DNA of 64,000 nt from Dehalococcoidia bacterium (GTDB lineage Bacteria; Chloroflexota; Dehalococcoidia; Lucifugimonadales; Australimonadaceae): assembly GCA_965248455.1 (NCBI GenBank), contig OZ252105.1, positions 2,603,193 through 2,667,192 of the forward strand, written 5' to 3'. Positions within the stretch are counted from its first letter, which is position 1; the number at the start of each line of letters is the position of its first letter. The position numbers and the translations under genes were made by a program. The notes beneath the pieces are model-generated. The model saw only the letters and a program-made list of their open reading frames with translations, did no database searches and was not told the DNA's origin. Shown here piece by piece: positions 22,101-36,388 of this stretch.

Positions 22101-23160
22101 GCTTGGTGAACACGTACACCGAGCCGGAATTGGTGCCGCCGTCGTCGTCCTGCCAGGCCCCTACCACAACAAAGTCGCCGTCTACCGCTACCCATCGACC
22201 GAAGCTATCGGCATTCGCGCGGTCGGAGGCGGTGAGCCTGACGGCGCTCCATATGCCCAGGGCATCCTTGGTAAACACGTAAGCCGCGCCCGAGGAAGAA
22301 TCTTCCCCCGGTGACCCTATAACAACGGTGTTGCCGTCCACCGCCACTGAACTGCCGAAAATGGTGCCGGCCCCGGCGTTGGCGCCGGCGCTCCATATGG
22401 CCGTGGCCGCCGGGCCCCAAACTCCGGAGCTATCCTTGGTGTACAGGTAAGCCTTACCGGCAAGAGCGTCACTGCCGATCAGGGCTCCCGGGGCCCCCAC
22501 GACGGCGATGCCGGTGTCCAACGCCACGGAACGTCCGAAAAGGTCATTTCCAAATTGGCCGGTCTTCGTGAACTCGGTGGCCAATGAGCCGGTCAGGCTA
22601 CTCTTGGAGGCTATGGTAATCTCACCGGGATCAGTGTTGTTGTTTTGGTGGTATGACGGGGCTCCAGCCATGACCGTACTGCCGGCCACCGCTACGGAAC
22701 TTCCGAGCCGGCCTTCGACCTGCGGGTTACTTACCGCCAGGAACTCATCGTAGCTCCACCCCCCGGAACCTCTGCTGAAGGTGTGCCCCCATCCGCCGTT
22801 AGTAATGGAGACACTCTGGTTGTCCAGAGATTCTTGTAAGGGGGCTCCAACCACCGCCGTGTTCCCGGCAATCCCCACGGAATCTCCGAACCTGTCGCCT
22901 GCCTCGATGGCGCCTGTAACAGTACTGGGAACGACCAGCTTGTCGATTGTCACCTGCAATACCTGGTAGCCCGTGATCGTAGTGTCGTTGGGGTCATTCC
23001 ACGTTAACGTCACCTGGGTATCACCCGCGGTCGCGGCGAACCCGGACGGCGCAACGGCCGCGTTGGCCGGCGCTGTAATGACGATCAGCAGCACGGCAAC
23101 GGCGAGAAGCGCGCCGATGATTGTCAGCCGCGGAAAGGTAGTTATATGGACTGCCCTCAT
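13159..23160 (-). CDS. Giant membrane-anchored surface protein (3333 aa): 13 FN3, four 7-bladed FG-GAP propellers, Ig/cadherin-like domains, Pro-Thr linker, C-terminal TM
   Basis: Signal-like N-terminus from ATG 23160; 28 FGxSVAxDG repeats; VTLxWxDP...TVTGLxNG..Y.F.VRAVN FN3 motifs; PVAVDD..TAED and LDYE motifs; FPWWAIVVVVIGVVAGVVLIIVVRRSRR. Confidence 0.93.
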   Translation of the reverse strand: MRAVHITTFPRLTIIGALLAVAVLLIVITAPANAAVAPSGFAATAGDTQVTLTWNDPNDTTITGYQVLQVTIDKLVVPSTVTGAIEAGDRFGDSVGIAGNTAVVGAPLQESLDNQSVSITNGGWGHTFSRGSGGWSYDEFLAVSNPQVEGRLGSSVAVAGSTVMAGAPSYHQNNNTDPGEITIASKSSLTGSLATEFTKTGQFGNDLFGRSVALDTGIAVVGAPGALIGSDALAGKAYLYTKDSSGVWGPAATAIWSAGANAGAGTIFGSSVAVDGNTVVIGSPGEDSSSGAAYVFTKDALGIWSAVRLTASDRANADSFGRWVAVDGDFVVVGAWQDDDGGTNSGSVYVFTKPSGGWGAWSGLSSTDKSALTAKLTASDAAADDHFGWSVEVDGDNVVVGAYGNDDNGSDSGSVYLFTKPSGGWVTATETVKLTAPDGTADDNFGDSVAAGGGRVIVGAPGDESETGAAYVFSIPTWTAITGSGPGTTSHTVTGLDNDVEYTFWVRPVDSGGPGPASGSKHAKPQQSPAATPANLTATAGVGEVTLYWDDPNDSTISGYKYRQKEAGGSFGEWTTIPNSGYGEANTTGYTVTGLTNGKTYTFRIRAVDEDGDTANSNDVTVTTILAAPTNLTATVGVGAGQIALNWDDPGNNLITKYQYSTDGGTSFTDITGSGATTTAYTVTGLSNGREYTLAVRAVNASVNGQAATVTAMPLLPPVPLYVSNIGQPTDTSVGVDADLSSDQAQGFRTGTNGTGYVLGSIDVHFQSATDSEDLTVSVRSPNNDAEPGTVVHTLTNPGTIEPGFVRFTAEDAQLSANTFYFVHLTFSGTGTTPLLRTTASDALDSGTATGWTMNDFRYYRSGANWFSSSNALKISINNVPPPVPGAPANLSATPGDGEVTLSWGDPSNDTIEKYQYSTDGGTTFIDIPGSDKDTIAYTVTGLSNGTTHTLAVRAKNISGEGDESSVTVLMIPAAPANLTAMPGDGMAALSWDDPGNTTITEYQLMQLAEESGLTADDGAKNDRFGVSVAVDGNTAVVGAFQPTYTDPDTSLDVSRPGAAYVYIKDSNGAWSQQAKLTASDGADGDEFGISVAVDGDNVVVGARGDDLDKGAIYVFSKPADDNWTSTITETKLTATGGEADDLFGAPVALYGDTIVVGAPRDQIEVSGGVARSGSAYVFTKNSGVWSQAANLTATDAATGDEFGISVAVDDDTIAVGAYGKDGNSITDSGLVYVFVKSGGAAWATTTETVQLRASDRAANDNFGRSVAVNGSTVVVGASGDRNTVGGTEVSTGSAYVFTRPDNGWTNSAGTETAKLTATDAAHTDQFGRSVAVYGDTIVVGAHQNDDDGEDSGSIYVFIKPTNGWTDTTGTVKLTASNAATGDRFGIALALDGDTALVAAPRNDANDDDDDTGNDVSDAGSAYVIGTSGWAKIPDTAAAIRSQTVTGLTNNIKHTFAMRAVNASGNGPASTVTGVPMPVPAAPVILSATPGDGRVTLSWTNPGDDTITKYQYSADYIINGGGMGNSGGATFSDIPGSQADTTAYTVTGLDNGVTHTLAVRAVNNFGNGMPSTVTALMVPAAPRLSAAPGDGQVILSWDDPGNPTIGEYQLSQSDPPEWSKITGSNATPTTHTVTGLTNYTGYSFQIRAVNETGAGPASNRASATPRIDKPGKPTGFGAVAGDTRVTLSWDNPGNSTITGYQISEVIPEDFLAAFDGTASDHFGISVAIDGNTAVVGADRANNRKGSVYIFTRDSNGDWTQQAKLDGENDGDQFGWSVAVEGDIVVVGAHAYDGGATLVNSGAAYVFTRTSGVWSQAARLTATFPKAYAFFGGSVALDGNTLAIGSRLYDAGGRLGAGAAYVFTKDSGTGVWSQAAKLTASTSLQLAYLGYSLAVDGDTVLVGAYGDDTVRGELGSGSAYVFDKPSGGWTDGNETAKLTASDRQPSGYFGFSVALDGDTAVIGASQHSDPITGAGSGAAYVFTRQTGVWGEKAKLTPSDAAAGDNFGVSVAVEGDTVVVGSWQDDDNGRNSGSAYVFTKPALGWAGTFETLKLTAPNGAANDRFGWSVAVDLDDQRGDLALVGAYSDDIATGMDAGSVHVLGIPDWMDIGLSDHQTTNHTVTSLTNGTEYAYQIRALNRSGAGPASDGASATPLGKPVAPVLSAQAGDGQVTLSWTAATADATIAPITKYEYNTDGGTTFTNIPDSGPSTDNYTVLGLTNLTTYTFAVRAVNVIGEGPSVTKDATPASATPAAPDLSATAGDTQVKLEWADPSDSSIDKYQYSTDGGTSFIDIDVEDIDYSVANTIGYTVTSLTNDTEYTFHIRAVDNQALQPYGDASDVTATPAGTLPDSPLNLAAEPGHEEVRLSWGDPDDASIDKYHYSIDGVANSTNISADATTYTITGLTNGTTYTFQISAENATGVGPASAAIDAKPLPPQLVRPALEPPEEGNGEVKLKWAYTHVETKETILRYEVLHLLKTSKLDGVGGDKFGYAVSVDGDIAVIGAYQDDDNGVDSGAVYVFSRVEGVWTQAAKLTAFDGAAYDNFGISVAVDGDTVVVGAPGNDGAGADSGSVYVFVKPTGGWATSTETAKLTASDGAALDYFGYSVAVDGDTVLVGAYQDDDEENDSEDSGSAYIFTKPNSSGSWADWNPMEDTETAKLTASDGADDDWFGVSVALDGKTAVIGASGDDDKGIDSGSGYVFVKPSGAWADGNETDKLTASDGEAQDNFGYSVAVDVDTVEVSDAEVEVATVVVGAYQHDPIDPHSPLYLLDAGAAYVFTRDSGGVWDGGEKLTADDGDALDYFGYSVAVDVDTVVVGAYGDDDNGSASGSAYVFTRDSNGEWSQKKKLTHEDGEAGDWFGYSVAVDTAAHTALVGAGSAHVLDIHDWESILEIEGQLPTEHTVENLFNGLVYDFQVRAVNLRSPGPQAEGEAVPQANGPPVAVDDASTTAEDTAIVISVLDNDSDVDGDSLSVIEVSTPSNGSVAITGAGTTVTYTPNSSFHGSDSFTYVASDGNGGTDTGTVNVTVTAVDDEPANRSPRFNEGLNTTRTVPEDAEVGMAVGDPVNARDSDNDRLEYWLWGMDRASFDVDPSTGQLTTKTALDYEVKNEYSVRVSARDRRGGVDGIIVTISVENVDEPPARPAAPDLKATSHSTLAVNWTAPDNQGPEITDYDLQYREADGEFKDVGYGGTGISMTLSDLKPETGYEVQVRAINAEGVSPWSESGRGETEEAPPPPTPTPAPTAEPTPAPTAEPAPAPTAEPTPAPTAEPTPAPTAEPTPAPTAEPTPTPTAEPAPSEADGGDEGFPWWAIVVVVIGVVAGVVLIIVVRRSRR
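13275..13448. repeat. 24-bp tandem repeat encoding (APTAEPTP)n stalk
   Basis: GGCTCCGCCGTGGGTGCAGGCGTA repeated about seven times. Confidence 0.88.
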
Positions 23161-23430
23161 ATAACGTCCTGCTCGTCGGCATCGGATGCGGTTAGCTTGG
23201 CCGACAAGGTCCACCTACCGAATTCCGAACCCCTGATAAACACGCCAGCCGTACCGGAATCGTCGCCCCGGTACGGTGCTATCACCGCGGTATCTCCGTC
23301 CACCGCTACGGTATACTCGGATTTATTATGCTGAGTTGGGAAGTCGGCCGTCAGCTTTGCACACTTCGCGAGCTTCCATAGCTGGTAGTTGGTTATGTAT
23401 GGCGAGTCGGCGGTAGGATCGTAACAACTC
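23157..23430 (-). pseudogene. Degenerate FN3/FG-GAP fragment directly upstream of the giant gene
   Basis: ITNYQL..AKLTAD..YTVAVDGDTAVIAPYRGDDSG..W.LSAKLTASDA; its stop overlaps the giant gene ATG (ATGA). Confidence 0.6.
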
Positions 23431-23817
23431 GGCCTCGGCTGGGTGTAGAGCGCCTCCGTGGACAGACCGATCCGCGGGCCCGGAACCTTATCTGGGGTTT
23501 TAACTCTCGCGAATGTGATCATTGGCACAGTAGGCCGGAAGACCATGCCCAGATTCAACAGAGTGGACAGCACCAGCGGCAGGGGTTGAGCTGCCACTGG
23601 CTCCAGTGTGTAGAAGCCGTACAGGTCCATGCCAGTTGTGCCGGTAAAGATCAACGTCACGTTCAGCATGAGCAGCAGGCCACCCAACCATGGCGCGGGC
23701 TTATCGCTACCACCCGGTCCGGCCCTAGTAGACCTGCCTCCACCCTGGCGGTCCTCTGTGGGAGCCGATATCCAAAACTCTGATGACTTTTGAACCCCAT
23801 CCCCGCCAGACGACGCC

Positions 23818-25041
23818 TCATAGCACCCTCCACCAGGGCGCAGCAAGCACATCCGGTGCCAGCCATTCCAGGGTATTGCCAGCGTGGAGCAACAGGCCTG
23901 CCCTGGCCCTATCGCCATACTCGGCCCGGAAGGTGCGCAGATGGGCTACGTCTCGGAGACGCGGCCGCTCCGTCGCCTTGACTTCGATGGGCAGCAGCCG
24001 ATCCCCAGCCTCAATCACGAAGTCTACCTCCTCGCCGATGGCCGTGCACCAGTAGAGGACCTCAGCCCGGTCGAGCCGAGCGTCCCGCCAGGCCAGCAGA
24101 TCGTGAAGCACCAGGTTCTCCAGATGTGCCCCTCGGGGCTCCTCCTCCTGGGTGAGATGCAACGCCACCCCGGTGTCGCCCCAGTAGAGCTTGGGAGATT
24201 TGATCAGCCGCTTGGTGCGGTTCACCGCGTAGGCGGGGAGCCGGACGAGGAGATACGACGTTTCCAGCAGGTTGAGGTAGCGGCTCACCGTCGGCTGAGG
24301 CAGCGCCACGTCACGGCCAAGCTCCGCCTGGTTGACAAGGTTGCCCATGCGGAGGCAGGCGGCCCGCATCAGCCTGCGAAAGTCTGGCAATGCCGAGATG
24401 GAAGAGAGGTCCTGGAGGTCCCGTTCCAGATAGGTGCGCACGTAGCCGTCAAACCAGACGGCCCTGTCCTGAGCGGCCTTGAGGTGGATGGCCGGTAGCG
24501 GGAAGCCACCGCGAAGCGCCAGCGCCCGCCAGTCCTCCGGCTGGTCAGGTTGGGCAGCCACCAGGGCGAGCCATTCCTCGTCGCGGGTCTTCAGCAGCTC
24601 CTCCCAGATGCCCCCACGTCCGAGACCCAGCTGCTCTCGCCGGGTCATCGGCCAGAGGGTCAGATAGCTGGCCCGGCCAGCAAGGGACTCGGAGACCTGT
24701 CGCATCAATAGCAGATTGGCCGAACCGGTGATGAGGAACTTCCCCGGCTGGCGCTGCTGGTCTATGGCCCGCTTCACCGCATGCAGAAGGTCCGGCTCTC
24801 GCTGCACCTCATCGAGAGTCACCTGCTGGCTGCCCCCCAGGAGCGCCTCGGGATCGCGGCGGGCTGCATCTACCACGTCGAGGTCGTCCAGGGAGAGGAA
24901 GCGCCGTCCGCCCGGCATAAGCTCCTGGGCTAGGGTGCTCTTCCCCGTCTGACGGGCTCCGGTCACCACCACCGCAGGCATGACCCGGAGACGGTCCTGA
25001 AGGCTTGGCCCAACGAGGCGGGGGAGTGTAGCGTCCATCAT
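23818..25041 (-). CDS. AAA+ ATPase with DUF4143 C-terminal domain
   Basis: GARQTGKST, LDEVQR, LITGSA, ESLAGR, KSPKLYWGDTG, EVDFVIE..PIEVK. Confidence 0.9.
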   Translation of the reverse strand: MMDATLPRLVGPSLQDRLRVMPAVVVTGARQTGKSTLAQELMPGGRRFLSLDDLDVVDAARRDPEALLGGSQQVTLDEVQREPDLLHAVKRAIDQQRQPGKFLITGSANLLLMRQVSESLAGRASYLTLWPMTRREQLGLGRGGIWEELLKTRDEEWLALVAAQPDQPEDWRALALRGGFPLPAIHLKAAQDRAVWFDGYVRTYLERDLQDLSSISALPDFRRLMRAACLRMGNLVNQAELGRDVALPQPTVSRYLNLLETSYLLVRLPAYAVNRTKRLIKSPKLYWGDTGVALHLTQEEEPRGAHLENLVLHDLLAWRDARLDRAEVLYWCTAIGEEVDFVIEAGDRLLPIEVKATERPRLRDVAHLRTFRAEYGDRARAGLLLHAGNTLEWLAPDVLAAPWWRVL

Positions 25042-25277
25042 GAGTACAATGATAGTCATTCACGGTATATTTTGCAATGGTGAGGCACCTTCCACAGTTT
25101 TCCTTGGGTTTATCCAGCCGCAGCGTCAGACAGCTGAGGAAACGGTGGTTGGCATCGGACACATGAAGGGGACCTCGATTTGGTCTCTTCCCGTGCTCCG
25201 TATTCGTCATAGACCGAAGCGTTTCTGCCGACCACGTACTCTGATGGACAACAAAAAAAGACCTCACATATGGATAG

Positions 25278-25320
25278 GCAGGGGCAGCTATCGTCCTCAA
25301 ACGGTAGCTGCCCCTGTTTT
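25278..25320. terminator. Intrinsic terminator-like hairpin downstream of the helicase operon
   Basis: CAGGGGCAGCTA...TAGCTGCCCCTG followed by TTTT, with an A-tract on the other side. Confidence 0.6.
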
Positions 25321-25403
25321 GTACAAGTCAGCGCCCTGTGCCGACCATCTCCTCCTCTCTCTGTTGCTGTCTTAGCTTCGTCGCCACCTTAGCGGCGCCC
25401 CCT

Positions 25404-27695
25404 TCAGGACACCGTTTGAGCCTCTCTTTCCTCCTCCCGGCTCAGCGCCCACTCGAACATGGAGAGGGTCGCGGGCTTCGGCTTCCCGTTCCTTCTGGCC
25501 GGCTTCTGCGGCTCCTCGGCCATGAACTCGGCCCAGGAGAACATCGACTGCTGGGTCTCTTCCACCACGTCAGCATGACCGTTGGCCGCCTCTACGGCGA
25601 CGTGGCTCGCGCCGTTCCGGAGCACTTCGACGAGCACCGTCTCCGGTTCCACCTCCACCGCGTGCCACTCCTCGTCCACCAGCAGCTCCTCGGAGACGGC
25701 CTCGGCGTTTCGCGCCTGGGCGAAGGCATCCTCCACCGACTCTCCTTCTTCTTCCTCCTCTCCGTTCACGATCTTCCTTGCCAACGCCAGCATGATGTCG
25801 TCCCCGTCGTCGCCGTAGGCCGCCAGTCCGTCCTCGGGCAACTCACCCTCCACCGCCAGGGAGCTTTGGAGCTTTTGGGCCACCAATTTGAGGGCATCCG
25901 CCTGGAGGGTGCCCCGGTAGGCCATGAAGATGACCTTCACGGGCCGGGTCTGACCGATGCGCCAGGAGCGGCGCGACGCCTGCCGCATGGTATAGACGCT
26001 GTAATCCGTTTCCGCCCAAACAATCGTTGGGAAGTCGATCAGGTCGAGGCCGGTCTGCACCAACCGGGGATGGCAGATGAGGACGTCGATGCCCTCCTTG
26101 ACCTTCTGCTCCACCCACGCCTCTCTGCGGTCCGGGACCACGGCGTCGGCCTTCATCACCGCCGCCCGGAATCCGTGGCGGGTGAGGATGTCCTTGATCC
26201 TGCCCGTGATGTCCCGCGTCCCGGTGTGGGTGACGTAGACCAGCACCCTCCGGCCCTCAAGCCTCTCCGCCGCCACCAGGTCTAAGAGCGCCTTCTCCTT
26301 TGGATAGAGCTTCTCCTCGGAGAGCGGCGGCACCGCCACCAGCACGTCGTCCGACTCCGGGTCGAAGACGGTCTCGCCCCGTGTGCAGCCGTCGGGATAG
26401 GCCAGCAGCGATTGAAGGTAGGTGGAGAGGAGCTTCCGTGACCCCTTGGCCAGCGCATCCGCGAGGGCGGCCCGCAGCTTGTCGTACAGCGTGCCGTAGG
26501 CTCCCCGCTGGGTGTACCCGTAGCTGTCGGGCTCGGAGTCCATCGACGAGAGGAGAATCTGCTCCTCGTAGGAAGGCAGCCCCGACGCCACGTCGGAGAG
26601 TCTGAGGAACACCGAGTTGCCGATGAGGTGGAACAACGCGGCTGGGGCGAGCCCCGGCCGTTCTCGCACCACCTTGCGGTAGCGCCTGCGCCGGCTGAAC
26701 CGTCCATCCTCCACCGACTCGTCGTCGTCCTTGCCGATGGTGTGCTCCTCGAAGCCGTACCGTTGTATCCACCTTCCCTCCTCGGAGCGCCCGAACTCCG
26801 TCCTGATGGCCGGGCTGAACCGGTACGGCAAGTGGAACAAAGTGCTCGAATACCCTCCAGTTAGGGTTCCTGTCAGGGTGAGGGAGCGGCCGCAGGAGTC
26901 GGCGAGGACGCCCGCTGCGATGCCCTGGGCGGAGCCTCTTCCTTTGTATTCGTGCACCTCGTCTGTTACGAGGAGCTCGAAGAACCCCTTCATCCGCTTC
27001 TTGATGTAGTCGGCGAGTGGATATCGCTTCGGCCCCTTGGGGTCGGCCTGCCAGAGGGCGGAGCCGCACCCGGCGCAGGTCCGCCGCTTGCGCCCCATCT
27101 CCTCGGCGGTGAGGGGCACACCGTCCTTGTCCACGATCTGGGTGGCGCAGAGGGGGCAGCAGGGGACCCGGAAGGGCTCCCCCGTCTCCTCGTCTCGGAC
27201 GAGCCCACCCCTGGATGTGGCCAACCGCTCGATGTAGGCCGCGTGCCAGCGGTAGGAGAGCTTCGCCCTCTCCCTCGACATGATGGCGAAGAGGGGGCCT
27301 GGGCCGGTGGAGAGGCGCAGCTTCTCCAGGTCGGTGATGGAGGCGACGATGGCGACGCGGGCCTTGGGCACCGTCTGCTCCACCTCACGCTTCCACTTCC
27401 GGGTCAGGTGAGGGGGTGTGAGTACGAGCACCCGCTGGAAACCCGCAGCGTAGGCTGCAGATGCGCCGATGAAGGTCTTGCCGGTGCCCATCTCCCCCAC
27501 GACGTTGGTGCCCTGGTGGGCCGCAAGGGAGAGGGTGACGCCCCGTATGGCGTCGGCCTGGGCTCCCAGGGGGGAGCGGAGCAGTTGGGGCAGGCCGTGG
27601 CCGTTCTGGGAGGGCCGGTAGAGGGGCGGGTAGGACTCCACCACCCGTTGGGCTATTGCATCTCGGTACTTGTCGATGAACTGGGCGAGGTCCAT
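25404..27695 (-). CDS. SF2 (SNF2-like) helicase with Zn-ribbon insert
   Basis: GEMGTGKT, DEVH, LTGT, VQTGLDL, QASRRSWRIGQ; CPLC/CAGC. Confidence 0.88.
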   Translation of the reverse strand: MDLAQFIDKYRDAIAQRVVESYPPLYRPSQNGHGLPQLLRSPLGAQADAIRGVTLSLAAHQGTNVVGEMGTGKTFIGASAAYAAGFQRVLVLTPPHLTRKWKREVEQTVPKARVAIVASITDLEKLRLSTGPGPLFAIMSRERAKLSYRWHAAYIERLATSRGGLVRDEETGEPFRVPCCPLCATQIVDKDGVPLTAEEMGRKRRTCAGCGSALWQADPKGPKRYPLADYIKKRMKGFFELLVTDEVHEYKGRGSAQGIAAGVLADSCGRSLTLTGTLTGGYSSTLFHLPYRFSPAIRTEFGRSEEGRWIQRYGFEEHTIGKDDDESVEDGRFSRRRRYRKVVRERPGLAPAALFHLIGNSVFLRLSDVASGLPSYEEQILLSSMDSEPDSYGYTQRGAYGTLYDKLRAALADALAKGSRKLLSTYLQSLLAYPDGCTRGETVFDPESDDVLVAVPPLSEEKLYPKEKALLDLVAAERLEGRRVLVYVTHTGTRDITGRIKDILTRHGFRAAVMKADAVVPDRREAWVEQKVKEGIDVLICHPRLVQTGLDLIDFPTIVWAETDYSVYTMRQASRRSWRIGQTRPVKVIFMAYRGTLQADALKLVAQKLQSSLAVEGELPEDGLAAYGDDGDDIMLALARKIVNGEEEEEGESVEDAFAQARNAEAVSEELLVDEEWHAVEVEPETVLVEVLRNGASHVAVEAANGHADVVEETQQSMFSWAEFMAEEPQKPARRNGKPKPATLSMFEWALSREEEREAQTVS

Positions 27696-27819
27696 TGGTT
27701 TTCTCCTTCCTTCTATAGAGGTATCGCTTCTGGCTGCTTCGGTCCTGATAAAGGGCGAGGCCCCGTGGTCCTGGAAAGAACCAGCGGGGCCTCGTGATGC
27801 GGCCCTGGGGTGGAGTCGG

Positions 27820-28857
27820 CTATGCGGCGATGTCGGTGATTACGCCGTCCCCGAGGTCCAGGGCGACGACGGTGGTGCGGAGCTTCTCCCGGTAGGTCTC
27901 CTTGTCCGGGGTCTCCTCCACCAGGACCAGCTCCTTGGTGGTCTTCCCCTTGACCAGAATGCGCCGACCGTCCGCTTCGAGCTGGAGGTTGTCCAGGAAC
28001 CCGGCGGCGATGAGCATCGCCATGTGTCCCCGACGCAACGGCATCAGGGGGCGGGTCCTCTGGTCCTTGCTGGGCCAGAGGGTATCCGTTACTTCGGCGC
28101 TGGCCCACAGGCCGGAGCGCCGGGCCTCCTGCGCCGCCGCCACGGGGTCGACGGTGCGGGTGGCGAACAGGATGTCCCCCGCATCCGAGGTGATGGCGGT
28201 GTAGATGGGGTAGCCTTGGGGAGACAGCGTCTCCGGCTCTCCCTCGGCCCAGGCCAGCACCTGCCCCTGCACCTCCTCGTCGAGACGGGGCTCCGCCATC
28301 CGGTAGCCCATGACCACCACCTGGTCGAAGGCTTCCCTTTCGGGGTGCGGGAAGGCCCAGCACCTCAATCTATAGTAATAGGAGGCGAGGTACTTGGCCG
28401 AGACCGCAAGACGCTGGCGGGGCACGATGAACACCAGGAGCCCGCCATCGTTCAGGTAGCGGGTCGAGTGGGTCAGGAAGGCGTGCTCCGTCCGCTTGCT
28501 TTCCGGGTCATGGTCGTATGGCGGGTTGAGCAGGCAGATGCCGAACGCCTGGTTGCCTATGGAGGTCTGGAACAGGTCCGCCGCCAGGGTGCGGTGCAGC
28601 CGGGATGCGGCCTCCTCAGCCCGGTCGGTATGCAGCTCCACCCCGTAGGTCTCTATGGGCATGGTGTTGTCCTGGGTAAGCCGCTCTCCCAGCTGGGCCA
28701 CCGCCTCCCCCACTCCGCAGCAGGGGTCGAGGATGCGGAGGACCTCCCGGTTGCGGTAGTAGTAGCCCGCAGGCGCCCGTATCAGCGTGGCGATGAAGTC
28801 CACCACCTTCTCCGGCGTCGGGTAAACCCCCCCTTTGGCCTGTGCTGCCAGTCTCAT
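27820..28857 (-). CDS. SAM-dependent amino-DNA methyltransferase (DUF6094-like)
   Basis: YPTP, ILDPCCGVG, YGVEL, LNPPY. Confidence 0.85.
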   Translation of the reverse strand: MRLAAQAKGGVYPTPEKVVDFIATLIRAPAGYYYRNREVLRILDPCCGVGEAVAQLGERLTQDNTMPIETYGVELHTDRAEEAASRLHRTLAADLFQTSIGNQAFGICLLNPPYDHDPESKRTEHAFLTHSTRYLNDGGLLVFIVPRQRLAVSAKYLASYYYRLRCWAFPHPEREAFDQVVVMGYRMAEPRLDEEVQGQVLAWAEGEPETLSPQGYPIYTAITSDAGDILFATRTVDPVAAAQEARRSGLWASAEVTDTLWPSKDQRTRPLMPLRRGHMAMLIAAGFLDNLQLEADGRRILVKGKTTKELVLVEETPDKETYREKLRTTVVALDLGDGVITDIAA

Positions 28858-29117
28858 GATGTCTCTCCTTCCTCATGGTCGGTCGATGTTGATGGGCCGA
28901 ACTTGCAGGGTTCGGGGCTGCAGAAGTAGCAGTCCCTCCTCGCCCTGGGTGGCGGGACGTAGTCCTCGGCGGACAGGGCCTGGAATATCACCTGCACGCC
29001 GCAGGAGTTGCAGTGGTAGATCTCTCCCGTATGGACATCCCTGTCCGGCTCCTCTATCTGGGCGAACCGCTCCTCGCAGTGGGGGCAGGTGAAGTAGATG
29101 GTCTGGGTCGTGGTCAT
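28854..29117 (-). CDS. Small Zn-ribbon protein
   Basis: CPHC...CNSC plus CYFC; RBS present; ATGA overlap with the methyltransferase. Confidence 0.7.
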   Translation of the reverse strand: MTTTQTIYFTCPHCEERFAQIEEPDRDVHTGEIYHCNSCGVQVIFQALSAEDYVPPPRARRDCYFCSPEPCKFGPSTSTDHEEGETS

Positions 29118-29146
29118 GGCTTATCTCCTCTCATTGGCCGCAGCCT

Positions 29147-29545
29147 TCAGGCAGCGAGCCGGTTATCTGACTTGATACCCACCACCTCTCCGGTGGCGAG
29201 ACTACGCTGGTAGCAGAGCGCCTGGCTGGTGCCCGCAGCCTCTGCACACGCGGTACAAAAAGCGGTGACGATCTCGGTGTGTTTCGCCACCGTCACTCGT
29301 CTGACCAGCACCGAGCCGTTGTCTGTGCTGGTGTGTCGGTAGAGCATCACCCTGGGGTCGCGCCTCTCTGCCTCAGTCGCAGGCCGATAGAAGTGAGGTT
29401 GCGCGGACGTGCACAGGTGCGTCGTGTGATCGTGCTTACAGAAACGGCAGGTCGTTCCGTCCGGCGAGAAGCGCTGCCAGGCTTTGAAATTCCGCTCCTG
29501 CCTGCGTTTGTTTGTGCGTTTGGCAATTGTCAGCGTCTTATCCAT
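29147..29545 (-). CDS. Cys/His-rich hypothetical protein
   Basis: GGAGG RBS; CRFCKHDHTTH...CTAC...CYQ. Confidence 0.65.
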   Translation of the reverse strand: MDKTLTIAKRTNKRRQERNFKAWQRFSPDGTTCRFCKHDHTTHLCTSAQPHFYRPATEAERRDPRVMLYRHTSTDNGSVLVRRVTVAKHTEIVTAFCTACAEAAGTSQALCYQRSLATGEVVGIKSDNRLAA

Positions 29546-30197
29546 ACCCTCCTCCGTTCACTGCTGCCACGATGGACTCTTCCTCTCCGGGTAGGGTCAG
29601 CGTCCCAGAAGCCACCGCCTCCGAGAGGTCCTCCTTGAGGGATTCGGGGTTGGGGTTGCAGCGGTAGGCGACCACTCCCGCCGATTGGAGTTGGGTGGTC
29701 TCCTCCTTCTGAAGGCCCCGCCGCCACAGCCAGTCCGCCCAGGAGGGATGCAGGGGAAGCGGGCTCTTCTTGTCCAGGAAGCGGTAGTGGAGCCTGGGGG
29801 CCTCGTCTTCCGTCTGGGCCAGGAGGAGGAAGGTGTCGTGTTCGGAGGCGTACTGGGCCATTTTCGTGTAGACCAACGCGTGCCAGCCACCACTCACCGG
29901 CAGCTTGGCTATCTTGGTCGTCCACGTGCCGACGGTTCCGTAGGGGATGCCGCAGCGCTGGTAGGAGCCACTAAGCGCCATCCCATCCGCGCCCTGGATG
30001 AGGTGGGCGACGTCGGGCGGTTGCTTGAGCAGGGATGCCCAGATCGCCTTCAGCGCCGTCTGGGAGCCGACCATCGAGACGAACCAGAGGCCGTCGGTCG
30101 CCTCGTCGCGGGCGAAGGCGTCGGCGGTGGCCGAGAAACCCCCGGCGTTGATGGTGTACAGGGCTTCGGGGTCGAGTGTGTGTTCGGTTGCAAGCAT
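29538..30197 (-). CDS. Hypothetical protein of the ICE-like operon
   Basis: AAGGAG RBS before ATG 30197; operonic overlap with the downstream gene. Confidence 0.7.
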   Translation of the reverse strand: MLATEHTLDPEALYTINAGGFSATADAFARDEATDGLWFVSMVGSQTALKAIWASLLKQPPDVAHLIQGADGMALSGSYQRCGIPYGTVGTWTTKIAKLPVSGGWHALVYTKMAQYASEHDTFLLLAQTEDEAPRLHYRFLDKKSPLPLHPSWADWLWRRGLQKEETTQLQSAGVVAYRCNPNPESLKEDLSEAVASGTLTLPGEEESIVAAVNGGGYG

Positions 30198-30302
30198 GGG
30201 TATGTCTCCTTTCGGTAATTGGAATGCTGATGCGCGGAGGTGTGGTGACTCCGTGGGGGCCGGCAAGGGTCGTTGCTGGGCTGCCTGGGTTTTCCTATAG
30301 GA

Positions 30303-30806
30303 TTAGAGGGCGGTGATGAGGCCGCGCTCCTTGAGGCTGACCGCCTTGTCCCCGCCGATGACCAGGTGGTCCAGTAGCTCGATTCCCAGGAGCTTGCCCG
30401 CCTCGATCAGCTTCTTGGTCAGGGCCACGTCAGCCGGGCTCGGTTCGGGGTCGTTCGAGGGATGGTTGTGGATCACGATGATCTTGGGCACCGCCTCCAT
30501 GACAGCGGGCCGGAACACCTCTGCCGGTCTGACGGCGATGGAGCTCACGTCCCCCTGGTAGATCACCCGCTGGCCCACGATCCGGGTCTTTGTGTCCAGC
30601 AGGAGGACCCGGAACTGCTCCTGGGCGAGGTGGGCCATCTCCGGGGCTAGCAGCAGCCGCACCGCCTCGGGCGAATAGACCGCCGGAGGGTCGGCGGGGC
30701 GCGGTGGATGGGTCTCCACCCCGTAGCGCACGGCCAGCTCCCCCAGGATGCTGACGTTGCGCCGGAGGGTCTCTAGCAGTGTGTCGTTGTGCTGTGCATT
30801 GGTCAT
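30303..30806 (-). CDS. radC: RadC-like JAB-domain protein
   Basis: QEQFRVLLLD, RPAEVFRPA, HNHPSNDPEPSPAD, LLDHLVIG. Confidence 0.9.
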   Translation of the reverse strand: MTNAQHNDTLLETLRRNVSILGELAVRYGVETHPPRPADPPAVYSPEAVRLLLAPEMAHLAQEQFRVLLLDTKTRIVGQRVIYQGDVSSIAVRPAEVFRPAVMEAVPKIIVIHNHPSNDPEPSPADVALTKKLIEAGKLLGIELLDHLVIGGDKAVSLKERGLITAL

Positions 30807-30914
30807 AGGAACCTCTCCTAGATGTGGATGGTCTGAAACGAGAAGCGGGGCCGCCCCGAAAATGGGAGCGGCCCCGTGCTGCGCCTGCTGGCAGGCGGCC
30901 GTATCACGATTGGG

Positions 30915-31310
30915 CTAGAAGGGTGACTTGGCCTTCACCGGCTCCTCGGCGCTGGCAACTGCGGACTCTTCCTCGGAGCTACCCCCGTTGCGGGAGTCGA
31001 GGAATACCACCTCGGAGGCGTGAATCTCGGTGCGGTGCCTGCGCTGTCCGTCCTCGGTCTCGTAGCTGTTCTGGACCAGCTTGCCGGAAACGTACAGCCG
31101 GTCCCCTTTGGCGACATACTGGTTCACCGCTTCGGCCAGGCCGGACCAGCAGGTGATACTGTGCCAGTCCGTGCTCGTCTCTCCGTTCTGGCGGTGTCGG
31201 TCGGTGGCCAGCCGTAGCTGGGTGATGGCGGTGCCGCTCTGGGTGTATTTCATTTCGGGGTCTGCTCCGACCCTTCCCAGTAGCTCTACCTTGTTGATTG
31301 TGCGTGCCAT
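30915..31310 (-). CDS. ssb: Single-stranded DNA-binding protein
   Basis: INKVELLGRVGADPE, TDWH, KGDRLYVSGKL, acidic tail ending PF. Confidence 0.93.
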   Translation of the reverse strand: MARTINKVELLGRVGADPEMKYTQSGTAITQLRLATDRHRQNGETSTDWHSITCWSGLAEAVNQYVAKGDRLYVSGKLVQNSYETEDGQRRHRTEIHASEVVFLDSRNGGSSEEESAVASAEEPVKAKSPF

Positions 31311-31435
31311 GTCGTTTCTCCTTTGTGTGTGTAGTAGTGCGGCGTTGCCGCACTCGAATGGAAATGCAGCGCCGCTCCCTTCGGAGGGGAACGGCCTTGT
31401 CCATGCGCTCCGGCTACGGAGCGTCTAGCTGCTCT

Positions 31436-31777
31436 CTACGTCCTCGGGCTCGGCTCCGCTTCAGCGAACAGCCTGTCGGGGTCCAGGGGCGCTACCGCGC
31501 TTCTCAGCCAACTCAGCCCGTCCCTTCTGACGCTGCCGTGCATCTCAGGGTCGTCGAGGGCCTGGACGTAGTGCAGCGCGGCGTTCACCACGTTGGCGTG
31601 GGCTCCGTTGTTGCAGAACACCCTCTGGGAGGCGCCCGCCATCATCTCCATGCTCGTGAGGCGCTCTACGCGGTTGGCGAGCCGGGTCTGGACCGAGGCA
31701 AGCTCGTTGGCGAGCCTTGCGATCTCCCGTGTCGCGGGCGGCATCCGCCGCAGGGTCTTGGGCGCGTATCTACTCAT
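31436..31777 (-). CDS. Hypothetical protein (coiled-coil N-half)
   Basis: GGGAGG RBS; bracketed by a 26-bp repeat. Confidence 0.65.
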   Translation of the reverse strand: MSRYAPKTLRRMPPATREIARLANELASVQTRLANRVERLTSMEMMAGASQRVFCNNGAHANVVNAALHYVQALDDPEMHGSVRRDGLSWLRSAVAPLDPDRLFAEAEPSPRT

Positions 31778-31875
31778 CTTTTCCTCCCTTCTCCTGTAGT
31801 GACAGGAATGCTGGATTCGGCAGGGTCACTCCCCCCTGAGGAATGCCACCGTTCAGCGCTCCGAGTAGGGAGCGT

Positions 31876-32934
31876 CTAGCTCACCCGCACGTACTGGGAG
31901 ACGGCCTCCGTCACGATGTCGGCGCGGGTGTCCGGGTCCAGCAGAGCGTTCAGCTTGCGGTAGTCGACCGAGAAGCGCCGGGTCTTGACCAGGCTCACCG
32001 CCCGGCCCTCGACGCTTGCTTTGGTCATCCCCCGCTGCCGCATCCACGCCTTGAGGGTGTCCAGCGCCCGGCGTTTCGCCTGCTCCGGCTCCCTCAAGGC
32101 TTCCTGCGCTTCCAGGTATGCCCGCACCGCAGCCCGAACTTCCTCGATGCTCACCTCCGTTCCTTCGTTCTCAGACGCCTCGCCCGTGTCTCCTTCAACC
32201 TCGGCTGTGCCGGGCTTGCAGGTGTTCAGGAAGGGGCAGGTCCGGCACTGCCAGCTACCGGCCCGGAAGTCCCGCTCCGGCAACTCGTCGGGGTTCTGCC
32301 CGTGGGCACCGTAGTGGTCGGCCAAATCACCGAGCCGGAAGCTGACGGCTTCCATCGCGTCCTCCACCCGCTCGGCGGGAATCGTTTCGGTGTCCCACTG
32401 GCGGCTGCCGGTGTCCATCGTGGCTATCACCACGTCGCGGGCTTCGCCGTACTTCCCGTAGGTGTAAAGGGAAGCCTGGGCCACCGACTCCGGGTGACTC
32501 CGCTCGGCCCCCAATGTCTGCCACCGCTTGTAGGCGTCCGGCCCCCTGGTCTTGACTTCGACGATCACCTCCGGCCCTCCGAAGAAGGGGAGGACGGCGG
32601 TGGCGTCGGGGTGTCCGGTGACGCGCAGGTTGGGGGCGATGAGGACCGTCACCTCCCTGGGGCTGTTGGGGTCCACCGGGATCACGTCCCAGCTCGCCCG
32701 CTCCATCGCCCGGAGCACCACCTGCTCCAGGGCCTGCCCCACCTCCATGACGGTCAGGGACTCGTCGGTCGGTGGGTTTGTGGGCTGCTGTTCAGTGGCG
32801 GCGTACCACAGGGCGCGGCGGCAGCTGCTGGCGGCGGATGCCCGCACCACCAGCGCCCCGTCTCCGTCGAAGTAGGCCGACGGTCGCGAGTAAACGTCCG
32901 CCCGGTCTCCGGTGGGGTCTTCGTTCTGGTTCAT
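31876..32934 (-). CDS. PD-(D/E)XK nuclease (Cas4/RecB-like exonuclease)
   Basis: RASAASSCRRALWY, GHPD, IVEVKT, QASLY, CRTCPFLNTC. Confidence 0.8.
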   Translation of the reverse strand: MNQNEDPTGDRADVYSRPSAYFDGDGALVVRASAASSCRRALWYAATEQQPTNPPTDESLTVMEVGQALEQVVLRAMERASWDVIPVDPNSPREVTVLIAPNLRVTGHPDATAVLPFFGGPEVIVEVKTRGPDAYKRWQTLGAERSHPESVAQASLYTYGKYGEARDVVIATMDTGSRQWDTETIPAERVEDAMEAVSFRLGDLADHYGAHGQNPDELPERDFRAGSWQCRTCPFLNTCKPGTAEVEGDTGEASENEGTEVSIEEVRAAVRAYLEAQEALREPEQAKRRALDTLKAWMRQRGMTKASVEGRAVSLVKTRRFSVDYRKLNALLDPDTRADIVTEAVSQYVRVS

Positions 32935-33437
32935 GGTCTGTCCTCCTTCGTTCCTATAGATGAGAAGCGGGACCGCCTCCGTGGAGACAGCCCCGCTAGT
33001 TGAGCAACCATCGGTTGTGTGCGCCGCTCATGCGGCGCTTTGGATTCGGATTCCTCTATCCCCTCTTTCGCCCTCTCTTCTCGCTCCTTCAGATGGAGCT
33101 TGAGGATCTGGGAGATGCCATCTGCGAGGCCCAGCACCCACACGCTCGACCCATCGCTCAACTGATTGGCGAAGGGCTGCATCTCAGCTATGCCCTGGCA
33201 CTGGTCCACGATCTCGGCGACGGGCGTGCCACGGCGCAGGTGAAGGGAGATGAGTCGGCAGGCCAGCTCTGTTACGCCAGAGGCGAAGGAGCCGGCCTTG
33301 CCTATCTGCCCAAAGACCTCGAAGGGCTCGCCCTCCTTGTCCAGGGACACCGTGACGTACAGGTTGCCATGCTCGGTATGGAGCTTGGTCGTGCTGCTAG
33401 GCAGCGTCCGGGGCCTGGGCCGTGTCGCCGGGGTCAT
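32931..33437 (-). CDS. Stand-alone TSCPD-like domain (class II ribonucleotide reductase C-terminal part)
   Basis: RPRPRTL..T.KLHTEHGNLYVTV..PFEVFGQIGKAG..RLISLHLRRG..IVDQCQGI..LADGIS. Confidence 0.75.
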   Translation of the reverse strand: MTPATRPRPRTLPSSTTKLHTEHGNLYVTVSLDKEGEPFEVFGQIGKAGSFASGVTELACRLISLHLRRGTPVAEIVDQCQGIAEMQPFANQLSDGSSVWVLGLADGISQILKLHLKEREERAKEGIEESESKAPHERRTQPMVAQLAGLSPRRRSRFSSIGTKEDRP

Positions 33438-33754
33438 GGCCCCTCCCCCTTCTCAAGGAGATAAGGAAGCGCTGGGGCGTAACGGTCGAAGAATTTGGCG
33501 ACCTTGAGGGCACACTCCCGGTCCCTCTCGTCGCCGATGCCCAGCAGCGTCTGGACAATGACCTCTTCGCAGTCCTCTTCGGCGTAGGCCGGGGTCAGCA
33601 GCGTCTCTTGGACGGCAGGGGGAAGGGAGTCCCACCGCTCCCGGCTCAGCTTCAGCCCGCCGTGGCTGGCCGTTTCGATCCGCACCACGCCCTCGGCCAG
33701 CGCTACGACGTCCTGGGGAGGTCCCCACGGGGTATACATAGTGTTCACTTTCAT
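33434..33754 (-). CDS. Small conserved mobile-element protein (DUF7007-like)
   Basis: TPWG..Q..AEGV..TASHGGLKLS...EEDCE motif (recalled family). Confidence 0.65.
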   Translation of the reverse strand: MKVNTMYTPWGPPQDVVALAEGVVRIETASHGGLKLSRERWDSLPPAVQETLLTPAYAEEDCEEVIVQTLLGIGDERDRECALKVAKFFDRYAPALPYLLEKGEGP

Positions 33755-33844
33755 GTCGTCTTCCTTTCTGTCCTGTAGATGAAAACGGGGCTGCCCCGGT
33801 GTGGAGACAGCCCCGTTACGTGGGCTCGCTATGGCGCGTTGGGC

Positions 33845-34033
33845 TCATGCCGCTTCCACCACCTCTGCTTCCCGCGTCTGCTGGAGCTTCCGGGTCGCCC
33901 CTTGCACCAGCGGCGTCAGCTCCGATGCCGATACCGCCTCAAGGTCCCTGCCCGTCTTGCCCTTGACCGCAGCCCGCACCTGCTTCTCGTCGAACCCCTG
34001 CATCGCCCCCAGGTCGATCAGCGTCGCCCGCAG
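33845..34033 (-). pseudogene. Orphan 3' end of a gene whose 5' part was deleted
   Basis: LRATLIDLGAMQGFDEKQVRAAVKGKTGRDLEAVSASELTPLVQGATRKLQQTREAEVVEAA* with no proper start; abuts the truncated integrase. Confidence 0.55.
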
Positions 34034-34053
34034 CGGCGGAGCAAAGGAGTCGG

Positions 34054-35541
34054 CTGCGCTACTGCGAGAGCAACGGACTCACTATCAACGCCCGCTACCA
34101 CGAGGTGGGCCGGGGCTGGTCGAAGAAGCGTCCGGAATTTCAGCGGATGCTGGCCGACGCCAGGAAGGGACGCTTCGATACCATCGTCTGCTGGAAGTCC
34201 GACCGCCTCAGCAGGGGGATGTACCCCGCCGCCGCCCTCATGGAGGTCGTCGAGGCCCACCAGATTCGGCTGGAAGCCGTCATGGACGTCATCGACGTGA
34301 AGACCTTCGGCCTCATGGCGGCCATCGGCAAGATCGAGTTGGACAACTTCCGGGAGCGGTCCACTATGGGCAAGCGGGGGACGGCCAAGCAGGGACGGGT
34401 GCCCACCGGCGGCCTCCCCTACGGATACCGCATCGGGGACGACGGCAGGCCCGGGGTGATTGAGGAGCAGGCCGAAGTTGTGCGCCGCATCTTCCACATG
34501 TACATCGACGAGGGGATGGGGTCCTACTCCATTGCCGTGCGGCTGACCGACGAGGGGACCCCCACCCAGACCGGCAAGCTGCTGTGGCTTCAGTCCCGCG
34601 TGCACCACATCCTGGGTAATGCCACTTACGCGGGTACCTGGGTCTATGGCAAGTACCGCCACGTCTCCACTGAAGACGGTATGAAGGTCTACGACCAGCC
34701 GAGGGAGACCTGGATTGAGATCCCGATGCCGCAAATCATCGACGACGAGACCTGGGAGCGGGCGCAAGCGCTGAAGAAGCAGCGGAGCAGGAGGGCCAAG
34801 AGGAACACGAATGTGCTCTACCTGTTGCAGCACCTTCTGAAATGCGGCGAGTGCGGCCACAACTTCCATGCAAGATGCACCCGGAGCACCACCAACGTTC
34901 GCAACGGCAAGAAGTACCGCTACGACCTTCCCACTCCCAACCGATACTACATGTGCAACGGAATGCAGAGTATGCGCCTGCGCTGCCGAGAGCGTCCCTA
35001 CATCCGGGCTGAGCGATTGGAGGAGTCGATATGGAGCGAGGTGAAGCGGATAATCCAGAACCCCGACCTGATCGTCGCCGGTATCGACACCCTCGATTCT
35101 CCAGAGGGCGGCGGATTGGAGGAGGAGGTCGCCCAAGCCGAGCGAGACCTGCGGAGCATCCAGATGGAAGAGGACCGCGCCATCAGGCTGTTCGTGTCGG
35201 GGAAGATCGCCGAGGCCCAGCTCGACATTCAGCGCAAATTCATCACCGAGCGACTTGAGAGCGCCAGGGCGAAGTTGGACGATTACCATGCTCAGGAGGT
35301 GGGCGGAGCTGAGAAGCGGCGGCTGATGGAGGCTGTCCTAGCCTGGGCGAGGAACGTCGGCCAGGGCATTGACGACCTGACCCCCGAGCAGCGCAAGGAG
35401 ATTCTCCAGATGGTTTTGGAGCAGGTCGTCATCGACAGGGACAACAACGTGGACATCACGCTGGCTATACCCATCGACGATGAGTCTCCTGACCCTGAGC
35501 CTGAGTCCGTGTCAATTGCGTCCAAAGAACCTTCGTTCTAA
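34054..35541 (+). pseudogene. Large serine recombinase, 5'-truncated (catalytic YxRxS missing)
   Basis: RYCESNGL..RPEFQRML..DRLSR; PYGY; recombinase domain; CGECG..YYMC Zn ribbon; coiled coil. The in-frame upstream sequence to the stop at 33964 has no YxRVS. Confidence 0.85.
35525..35538. other. Right attachment junction, overlapping the last codons of the integrase
   Basis: AAGAACCTTCGTTC; the integrase stop TAA follows immediately. Confidence 0.75.
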
Positions 35542-35606
35542 GGTTTAGGCTGGTGGTGTACAAAGCGGGCGTGCGCGCGCTGGCGCTGGTCAGGGAATAG
35601 CCCTTC

Positions 35607-36155
35607 TCAGACGGGGAGCTGGTCGGCGTCCGGGGCTGCAACGACGCCGAACGCGGTGTTAATCGCCGAGATGTATTGGTACTGGCCGACGGTGGCAGCG
35701 AGCTCGACGAGCCATCGGACGCCTTTGCGGCCCTCCAGCGCGTCGAAGAGGTCTTGCTCGACCTTGTTGTTCTGCAGGAGTTGCCGTACGAACTCGATGA
35801 TGTCGCGCTCGTCCTCTTCGAGGCCACTGGTGTCCTGCCTGTGCCTGACGGCTTCGATGGCCTCTTCCCGCATGTCGGCGGCGCGTCCGGCTCTCACGTG
35901 CGCGGCCCACTCGTAGGTCGCGTCCTTCTCCCTCGCGACGGCGATGATGGCCAGTTCGCGCTCGACCGAGCTAAGCGTCGAGCCCAGCCTGACCTGCGCG
36001 CCGGCCTCCATGACTTTCTGGGCGAGGCCGGGGCTGTGCATGAGGACGGCGAAAGGCCCGCGCACCCCGTGAAGCGTTTCGACGATTGCGTCGAACTCAG
36101 CGTGTCGGTCATCGGGAATCTGGGCCTTGTCGGTAATCATCTCGATGCGTGGCAT
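35607..36155 (-). CDS. Carboxymuconolactone decarboxylase/AhpD-like family protein
   Basis: GPFAVLMHSP, RELAII, YEWAAH. Confidence 0.82.
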   Translation of the reverse strand: MPRIEMITDKAQIPDDRHAEFDAIVETLHGVRGPFAVLMHSPGLAQKVMEAGAQVRLGSTLSSVERELAIIAVAREKDATYEWAAHVRAGRAADMREEAIEAVRHRQDTSGLEEDERDIIEFVRQLLQNNKVEQDLFDALEGRKGVRWLVELAATVGQYQYISAINTAFGVVAAPDADQLPV

Positions 36156-36388
36156 GACTTCTCCTAGCGGCATCAACGCCCAATCCGTTCGGGAGTGTTT
36201 CTCGGCTATTGTACTGTTTCCTACCCCACCGAACTGGACTCGAACTCAGGTGGCACGTTGTCAACTGCCCCTTCCCTCCTAGAGCGCCCGATCCACCGTC
36301 CATGAGTGCCGGCACGTTTTGTTGCTATTGCGTCCTGCGATGAGGATTGAGGAGGGGCGGGCTGGGGAAGGGGTCGCAGGCGCGCCCT

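Follow-up and report, generated by a model that had tools for sequence, protein, structure and literature searches.

What becomes of an integrase when its own attachment site lies inside its gene, so that every integration might exchange the C-terminus of the enzyme? This question is raised by a 64,000-nucleotide stretch of a Dehalococcoidia genome (GCA_965248455.1; 2.80 Mb in one contig, positions 2,603,193-2,667,192; hereafter the window), which contains a 22.9-kb integrated element, termed E1, with a recombinase gene at its right end. A first-pass annotation, made from the sequence alone, had placed attP inside this gene and had suggested that two integrase forms could set directionality without a separate recombination directionality factor (RDF). 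What decides between the insertion and the excision of DNA by serine integrases is under active study, and such enzymes are widely used in genome engineering. The best explanation as a whole, to which we give a better than even chance, is that E1 belongs to a mobile-element family that is widespread in Dehalococcoidia, is moved by a large serine recombinase (LSR), has an attP overlapping the 3' end of the recombinase gene, and encodes an enzyme that would differ between the circular and integrated states at its directionality-control surface. The layout itself has already been published, for IntP of phage Mx8 and for the Dehalococcoides recombinase DsiB (McMurdie 2011, BMC Genomics 12:287, PMC3146451), and the new part is a conserved tail peptide together with its predicted docking site.

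Element ends, crossover and the truncated recombinase gene

The features on which the argument depends are the following.

12632..12687 (+): attL, consisting of B arm 12632-12660, TT 12661-12662 and P' arm 12663-12687, assigned from the empty attB and the palindrome
12662..12742 (+): orphaned last integrase codons, ..SF and then DGLNNNGKLRYSWAVDLGPFKPGW, with the stop at 12740-12742; untranslated when integrated
12663..35531: integrated element E1 between attL and attR, 22,871 bp with TT counted once
33845..34003 (-): C-terminal remnant (52 amino acids) of a Rad52/22-family gene, the end of a 250-amino-acid gene at L074:2750-3502
34059..34060: deletion junction, at which 7,034 bp of the L074 element are missing according to the window-L074 DNA alignment
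34060..35541 (+): gene of a large serine recombinase, truncated at its 5' end, with an open frame from GTG 34105 (478 amino acids) and without the catalytic-serine segment
35507..35560 (+): attR, consisting of P arm 35507-35531 (coding for ..SVSIASKEP), TT 35532-35533 and B' arm 35534-35560

The open reading frame (ORF) 34105..35541 (+) ends in ...SIASKEPSF with TAA at 35539-35541, and its final ..S F codons and stop are supplied by the B' arm of attR, as the first-pass annotation had read when it assigned the stop to flanking DNA. Its second reading, that the frame of a circular form would continue for 24 residues, was also correct: 12668-12739 read in the integrase phase gives DGLNNNGKLRYSWAVDLGPFKPGW, followed by TAA at 12740-12742. 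The 14-base core at 12654-12667 repeats the attR core with one change (shared core AAGAACCTTC(G/A)TTC). The same genome contains an unoccupied attB (G000:C1 ~674,990-675,025), at which the left and right flanks of the window element abut. Compared with this empty site, window 12632-12667 is 94% identical over 36 bp and window 35525-36334 is 97.9% identical over 810 bp, with the B arm matching at 28 of 29 positions and the B' arm at 36 of 36. Because the empty attB joins both flanks, the shared core is not a chance repeat and the ends of the element are real. A scan of the window for B-arm-like sites gave one match at three or fewer mismatches, where 0.01 was expected, and no further site.

The position of strand exchange can be narrowed within the repeat. 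Near-identical integrases (L039-L044, L072) share their sequence through ...AAGAA(T/C)CTT and diverge at the very next base. About TT, 15 of 25 positions of the P arm (35507-35531) are mirrored in the P' arm (12663-12687), an imperfect palindrome whose score is matched by 1 of 20,000 shuffles of the P arm; a rival centre at offset -2 ties with TT in the same scan. A crossover at -2 was rejected because the paired element ends in another genome (G034) share TT but not the preceding dinucleotide, and a crossover at a second TT (35536-35537), about which attB looks symmetric, was rejected by junction comparison and the palindrome scan. Judged from these alignments, the crossover dinucleotide is the first TT (35532-35533 and 12661-12662), which does not coincide with the end of the repeat, and it sits within the integrase codons ..CCT|TCG... 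The A at 12664, where attR has G, is part of P'; all other P' arms seen start with CAT or CAC. The arrangement shows the short (~40-50 bp), imperfectly palindromic sites, central dinucleotide and hybrid attL and attR that characterize LSRs. The empty attB, the crossover at TT and the divergence of the homologs together confirm that attP lies inside the integrase frame and that integration swaps the C-terminus, so that the integrated and circular C-termini differ in the family of the window element.

Across genomes the B' arm follows the consensus of C, three to four variable bases, and then TGAGGTTC..TGG...TGTAG. The attB-like sequences, about 60 bp long, begin immediately downstream of the CCA end in several tRNA genes and are also present at tRNA-free sites; one at G000:C1 1,745,767-1,745,830 follows tRNA-Val-GAC, and those of relatives (L022, L025, L026, L029) follow tRNA genes Met-CAT, Ala-TGC and Arg-CCT.

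By its domains, the product of 34105-35541 is a member of the LSR family. Pfam assigned Recombinase (PF07508, 2.9e-23) and Zn_ribbon_recom (PF13408, 2.1e-11), and of Resolvase the rear part only (profile positions 44-144 of 145); these serine-recombinase domains rule out a tyrosine integrase. The LSR order, a first DNA-binding domain (DBD1, Recombinase) and then a zinc-ribbon domain (DBD2) into which a coiled coil is inserted, is present according to Pfam and to a model of the homolog L066, which is 85% identical to the window protein and has two long helices (105-131 and 137-186). In a Foldseek search with the model of the C-terminal half of L066, the top matches were the LSR-DNA complexes 4kis, 9y66, 9dxh, 9tep and 9iu2 (4kis_A at E=4e-7), with SPbeta, phiC31 and Bxb1 complexes among the matches. 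The family is large: 1526 of 8000 candidates scored are relatives of the window protein at E<=0.001, 386 of 436 pattern matches in genome contigs encode a relative, and all 80 of the 80 loci kept are titled as Dehalococcoidia metagenome-assembled genomes, often with multiple copies per genome.

The C-termini of the family vary as expected from a frame that runs into its target. The alignment of the homologs is near-invariant up to ..SV(A/S)(I/V)(A/G)S(K/Q)(E/D)(P/S) and shows no agreement beyond. The best 120 homologs are 81-93% identical, and 53 of them are 543 amino acids long. In 71 of the 120 the stop lies at most two codons past the crossover codon; 13 continue through the B' arm as x-C-G-S-G-W-R-C..; longer tails of other kinds end 29, the recurrent WSGSS.. 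type accounting for 16; one (P0050) has the tail found at the far end of E1; and six were unclassified. The first two classes are due to the B' arm being read in frame: the in-frame TGA of the B' consensus (TAA in the window) ends the frame, and TGC variants yield C-G-S-G-W. The conserved right arm of attB thus usually gives a stop after two codons, and therefore the common 543-amino-acid form. A P arm followed by the B' consensus was counted by regular expression in 39 of the 80 loci and by other sequence in 8, with the P-arm expression silent in 33. This accounts for the differing lengths at which hundreds of Dehalococcoidia recombinases are annotated, each being a product of the attB arm into which its frame runs.

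The window copy of the integrase is a deletion pseudogene. By Pfam and alignment, it has no catalytic domain with the nucleophilic serine. The single Resolvase match in the whole genome begins at profile position 18 (window 34039), and the motif ..RAAIYARVSDKSQ.. with which 18 of 18 aligned homologs start (..YARVSDKSQ..) has no counterpart in the window gene; the homolog L066 matches Resolvase positions 1-144. DNA homology with 13 of 13 compared loci begins at 34059/34060, at the YCES codons. When the window is aligned with the intact relative L074, its stretch 33212-34060 pairs with L074 2105-2965, and from 34059 the match resumes at L074 10000. The window therefore lacks 7,034 bp, and microhomology at the junction is at most 2 nt. 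By comparison with L074, the deleted block held the integrase promoter and first ~44 codons, a PIN-domain gene, three to four ORFs to which Pfam assigns no family, and ~200 codons from the start of the Rad52/22 gene (Pfam Rad52_Rad22, 1.4e-29, in L074:2750-3502). A genome-wide search found no separate N-terminal Resolvase piece. Since the deletion took the promoter and the first ~44 codons including the catalytic serine, E1 is fixed in place, and therefore no C-terminal switch operates in this window; the first-pass annotation had missed both the serine-recombinase class and the loss of these codons. The only other LSR-like gene of this genome (L002, G000:C1 661,643-665,620; ORF 1480-2847 on the minus strand, 455 amino acids) also encodes a protein without a catalytic-serine motif and is located about 11 kb from the empty attB.

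The tail encoded at the far end

Although this copy is dead, the codons orphaned at attL recur elsewhere in the family. A conserved tail of ~25 residues with the core KLRYSWAVDL ends nine long-form ORFs (proteins P0050 and P0121-P0125; loci L066, L109 and L113), and at least eight far ends carry it as well, which is a positive outcome of the check for in-frame conservation that the first-pass annotation had proposed. A search with C-terminal words returned two proteins with P0050 as the query and four with L066. P0125 ends in ..FDGLNRHGKLRYSWAVDLGPFKPGRIFGQ, almost identical to the orphaned tail of the window, and the sister subfamily of L109 and L113 ends in ..GKLRYSCVVELDATG. A window-type P' arm with tail DNA lies directly 3' of the integrase in L066, where a frame of 572-608 amino acids is intact, and directly 3' of the L114 integrase, the gene of which is broken upstream. 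Far ends of attL type, with B arm, P' and tail, were identified in the window and in L094, L049, L118, L120, L122, L123, L124 and L126.

We searched five records for a far end paired with its integrase. A clean pair was found in G034, with an intact integrase at 1,265,933-1,267,495 and a P' arm at 1,237,163, 30 kb upstream, both carrying TT; the frame joined across P|P' runs into ..SSAGHNSNGKLRYSWAVGLGGS (..NSNGKLRYSWAVGLGGS). A second, less certain pair in G035 is 54 kb apart and plausible. At sequence level, the full gene is present only where P is joined to P', in a circle or at a head-to-tail junction, and it then ends N-x-x-G-K-L-R-Y-S-W-A-V-D-L...

Constraint on the tail was estimated from 22 distinct copies chosen by DNA motifs and blind to frame, and from a second set of 11 close copies. 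In the 22 copies, the ratio of nonsynonymous to synonymous variation (pN/pS) was 0.41 in the integrase frame and 0.86-1.29 in four other frames. In the close copies it was 1.09 over the first eight codons, which form the P' half-site, and 0.38 over the next 16 codons. The most conserved block is located 34-49 bp from the centre, beyond the 52-bp palindrome. These comparisons give moderate but not decisive grounds to think that the tail is translated and useful, and that it is under moderate purifying selection.

In the long-form proteins, the tail is joined to the last zinc-ribbon hairpin by a proline- and acid-rich linker of 25-35 residues. An AlphaFold2 (AF2) model of the C-terminal half of L066, made from a 24-row alignment, had a predicted local distance difference test score (pLDDT) of 77.7; the tail of this single chain has two strands, which reach pLDDT 66-70 and are flanked by linkers at 30-38. 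When L066 residues 296-522 and the tail 536-572, both parts of one polypeptide, were predicted as two chains, the score was 0.77 (0.77, 0.76 and 0.77 in the three runs), whereas the best control had 0.02. Of solved complexes, 58 of 80 attain the mark set by the tail, as do 2 of 110 mismatched pairs. The runs agreed in at least 82% of contacts, with a partner pLDDT of 51-52. Strand L553-V559, with the KLRYSWAV core, is predicted to pair with strand 511-517 and to have further contacts at 366-388, where W557 and Y555 meet 374-385, and at 469-473, near the foot of the coiled coil. From these models we infer that the tail adds a beta strand at the junction of the zinc ribbon (DBD2) and the coiled coil. 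The same place has been described for RDFs: all verified RDFs are predicted at the DBD2-coiled-coil junction, mostly through a beta strand added to DBD2, C-terminal LSR extensions may block the RDF site, and the extreme C-terminus of SprA is cited there as part of a directionality toggle (PMC12286644). The first-pass annotation had also argued from the lack of a recognisable RDF in the element, an argument that has no weight since the 7-kb block next to int was deleted and RDFs have no conserved sequence (PMC12286644).

Possible meanings of a state-dependent C-terminus

How might an intact member of the family use such a tail? Strand exchange at TT detaches the integrase gene from its last ~25 codons, and these come to lie at attL, at a distance of 22.9 kb. 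Once integrated, the gene is read on into host DNA and usually takes its stop from the right arm of attB; joining P to P', in a circle or at a head-to-tail junction, restores the full gene with its conserved tail. The tail peptide might then lay a beta strand onto the last DBD2 hairpin and contact the base of the coiled coil, where RDFs act. Because docking is predicted at the RDF surface, the enzymes of the circular and integrated states would differ at the very surface that controls directionality. The tail would cover or mimic the RDF site only in the whole gene, and the conservation of the tail and its predicted docking make it plausible, if only indirectly, that the two forms differ in directionality. 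Our preferred reading is that the long form would be shielded from the RDF and committed to integration, with the short form switchable to excision. More broadly, and only tentatively, we propose that the tail is a natural state-dependent directionality peptide at the RDF site, that integration toggles the enzyme between RDF-blind and RDF-responsive states, and that the motif, occurring in several subfamilies with different att arms, is a portable control module. If this is true, a directionality surface that is covered or exposed according to the wholeness of the gene would be a simple self-sensing switch, and it would provide a testable answer to the question raised for DsiB in 2011, and for SCCmec-type recombinases with C-terminal extensions.

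Several observations weigh against this proposal, and some of them would be better accommodated if the overlap of attP with the end of the gene were mere compaction, the tail were unselected read-through, and the block beyond the P' half-site were kept for a reason at the DNA level such as an accessory site or an end signal, an explanation that we regard as rather unlikely. A read-through of ~25 codons is, by estimate, roughly the chance expectation in DNA of such composition. The variable columns of the tail fall by codon position as 2, 8 and 7 of 16, without the usual excess at third positions, and an antisense frame whose third positions coincide is nearly as constrained (pN/pS of 0.60 in the 22 copies and 0.41 in the 11 close copies). 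In-frame stops occur in 4 of the 22 copies; the block GGTACTCGTGGGCGGT also occurs without a preceding recombinase frame and in decayed copies with stops; and in L088 the copy (near 12743) is one base out of frame after a recombinase-like C-terminus, at a site adjacent to an A-run in a long-read assembly. A 'trivial explanation' was offered for DsiB as well (PMC3146451). What counts against compaction is the pN/pS of 0.38-0.41 in the integrase frame compared with at least 0.86 in four other frames, the identity of the least variable residues (R, Y, S, W) with those in the predicted interface, and the position of the block, which lies outside the palindrome and has, by eye, no mirror copy on the P side; a scan of 12400-13300 gave no Rfam, promoter-like or terminator-like match. 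The same open antisense frame might instead mark the conserved segment as a small opposite-strand protein that reads out of the element (for the window, about 33 amino acids from the minus strand of 12652-12756). None of the 11 close copies interrupts that frame within the 16 tested codons, and the codon-position pattern would look more typical in it; yet a stop directly precedes the conserved part in copies of the L114, L124 and L126 type, no start codon is conserved, and coding DNA that is rich in G+C often has open frames on its antisense strand. We regard this explanation as very improbable.

Other objections to the proposal concern where long forms are found and what the models can tell. 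Long forms are rare: one occurs among the 120 best homologs and four among 80 loci, with each of these loci in a large chromosomal contig and none in a demonstrated circle. A search for this P arm joined to P' gave no match in viral contigs, JGI metagenome contigs or 401 genomes of the class, although this pattern was narrow and required exact matches, and its zero count therefore says little. The docking score is the model's own confidence, from shallow alignments of 37 and 8 rows made for this study; since LSR-RDF complexes have been solved, the model may in part reproduce known structures when it adds a beta strand at this site; and the full-length AF2 model was poor (pLDDT 53.5). The bias towards integration given above for the long form is a preferred reading, and the opposite bias is conceivable: the tail might be a built-in mimic of an RDF, not a shield, and might tilt the long form towards reactions of the attL x attR type. 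These could serve to resolve or rearrange tandem arrays, in which the long gene is restored within the chromosome at a P|P' junction. The long forms seen as DNA (L066, L109, L113 and L114) are indeed all in chromosomal contigs, and P0050 and P0121 come from contigs of 1.46 Mb and 2.3 Mb. Most verified RDFs are predicted to bind by beta-strand addition at this junction (PMC12286644), integrase-RDF fusions are active in excision (PMC5737554), and the idea of a fragment in an adjacent island was raised in McMurdie 2011 (PMC3146451). A 20-residue strand may, however, be too small to redirect the coiled coil, and a long form averse to integration would harm a circle that needs re-insertion; we consider the mimic improbable.

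The preferred reading, a shielded long form and a switchable short form, can be set beside known systems in which integration alters a gene. The first-pass annotation had named SSV1 and mycobacteriophage BPs as precedents; they stand as analogies only, and not as close kin, because the enzyme here is an LSR, and IntP of the myxophage Mx8 and DsiB are closer. In SSV1, integration splits a tyrosine integrase gene into two large parts, and in the sib retroregulation of phage lambda it changes the sequence 3' of int and acts via mRNA decay; the likeness is that integration alters the 3' context of int or splits the int gene. In BPs, a degradation tag has a role in the repressor forms. The BPs attP lies inside a gene whose integrated and free forms differ in C-terminus and behaviour, but the split gene is a repressor, not an integrase, and the BPs integrase is a tyrosine recombinase (PMC4557955, PMC3694055). 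In Mx8, attP is inside the int coding sequence, and integration joins the gene to another 3' end, so that the activity of the protein (IntP/IntX) is altered (review PMC6070905); Mx8 is a phage of Myxococcus and its enzyme is a tyrosine recombinase, with another chemistry and without coiled-coil or RDF logic. The C-terminal extensions of SCCmec-type LSRs are permanent, whereas that of the window family depends on the integration state (PMC12286644). Engineered integrase-RDF fusions, in which a partner tethered to the integrase C-terminus changes directionality, are man-made (PMC5737554).

DsiB is the other of the two closer systems. By description, it shares with the window family the bacterial class, the enzyme class, the size and the gene end that overlaps the att site: the dsiB gene 'always' overlaps this site at its 3' end, with a stop outside the island and divergent C-termini, and its authors considered that the gene is perhaps fully functional only on the circularised element or beside an adjacent island (PMC3146451). 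The idea of a state-dependent C-terminus was already voiced for DsiB in 2011 in that paper. DsiB targets the tmRNA gene with a 20-bp direct repeat, unlike the ~60-bp attB of the window family after several tRNA genes and elsewhere, and neither a conserved tail nor a docking site is reported in the available text (PMC3146451). E1 is not integrated at the 3' end of a tmRNA gene, the gene in this genome (591,197-591,548) being far from both sites. The DsiB-DsiA-RecF-ParB-Mom module was not found either: Pfam on the ORFs neighbouring int in the window and in L074 gave Rad52/22, PIN, DUF7007, TSCPD, SSB and RadC, and no second resolvase, ParB or Mom. Our literature search, with subscription journals outside its coverage, found no further paper on attP inside a serine integrase gene.

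Cargo, surrounding island and other junctions

The remaining features of the element and its flank are as follows.

13159..23214 (-): 3351-amino-acid FG-GAP, fibronectin-III and cadherin-like surface protein (cargo; Pfam)
23818..33754 (-): DUF4143 ATPase, helicase, DUF6094 methyltransferase, RadC, SSB, Cas4/RecE-like exonuclease, TSCPD and DUF7007 (Pfam, PHROGs)
35534..36334: host-side flank, a module with a carboxymuconolactone-decarboxylase-family gene, coding sequence 35607-36176 (-)

The 3351-amino-acid protein has 27 FG-GAP repeats, 10 fibronectin-III domains, cadherin-like domains and a predicted C-terminal membrane anchor, and the 3' part of its gene is 93-97% identical to DNA of L042. 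Parts of 23818..33754 are common to the elements in L043, L058 and L074.

For its own genome, E1 is ordinary, a fixed element of 22.9 kb mapped within an island of about 26 kb. The cupin gene (8822-9976) and the amidohydrolase gene (36389-37384) of the window are adjacent in four relatives (G001, G017, G006, G007), and window ~10087-36374 is therefore an insertion. A 21-bp direct repeat (10066-10086 and 36375-36395) brackets this ~26.3-kb insertion, with the right copy covering the last codons of the amidohydrolase gene. The 0.8-kb module 35534-36334, comprising the gene and attB, is present twice in the genome at 98% identity, the second copy being at G000:C1 674,195-674,986; in relatives, its carboxymuconolactone-decarboxylase-family gene is at yet another locus. 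E1 is thus nested in the ~26-kb island, within an attB that was brought by the 0.8-kb module. Between the left end of the outer island and attL lies a three-gene block of lower G+C content (10130-12521, minus strand; 55-57%), the products of which are a protein with an HExxH metalloprotease-like motif, a 328-amino-acid protein, and a Pro/Thr-rich secreted protein with DPYAHAGA repeats.

Other junctions are marked by related sequences. The WSGSSPASPAS.. reads among the homologs (P0049, P0060 and similar; L088 10001-13400) run from the crossover into a neighbouring recombinase gene, which suggests that elements with different serine recombinases might be stacked head to tail. Other junctions are marked by orphaned tails of a second type, ..RNSNK..R(H/Y)SW(T/V)VDR.., at ~36283-36340 (-) and 8640-8720 (-), and also near G000:C1 2,073,152 and 1,293,871. 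One of these junctions lies exactly at the right end of the duplicated module, and this type of tail resembles the C-terminus of the sister recombinases in L109 and L113.

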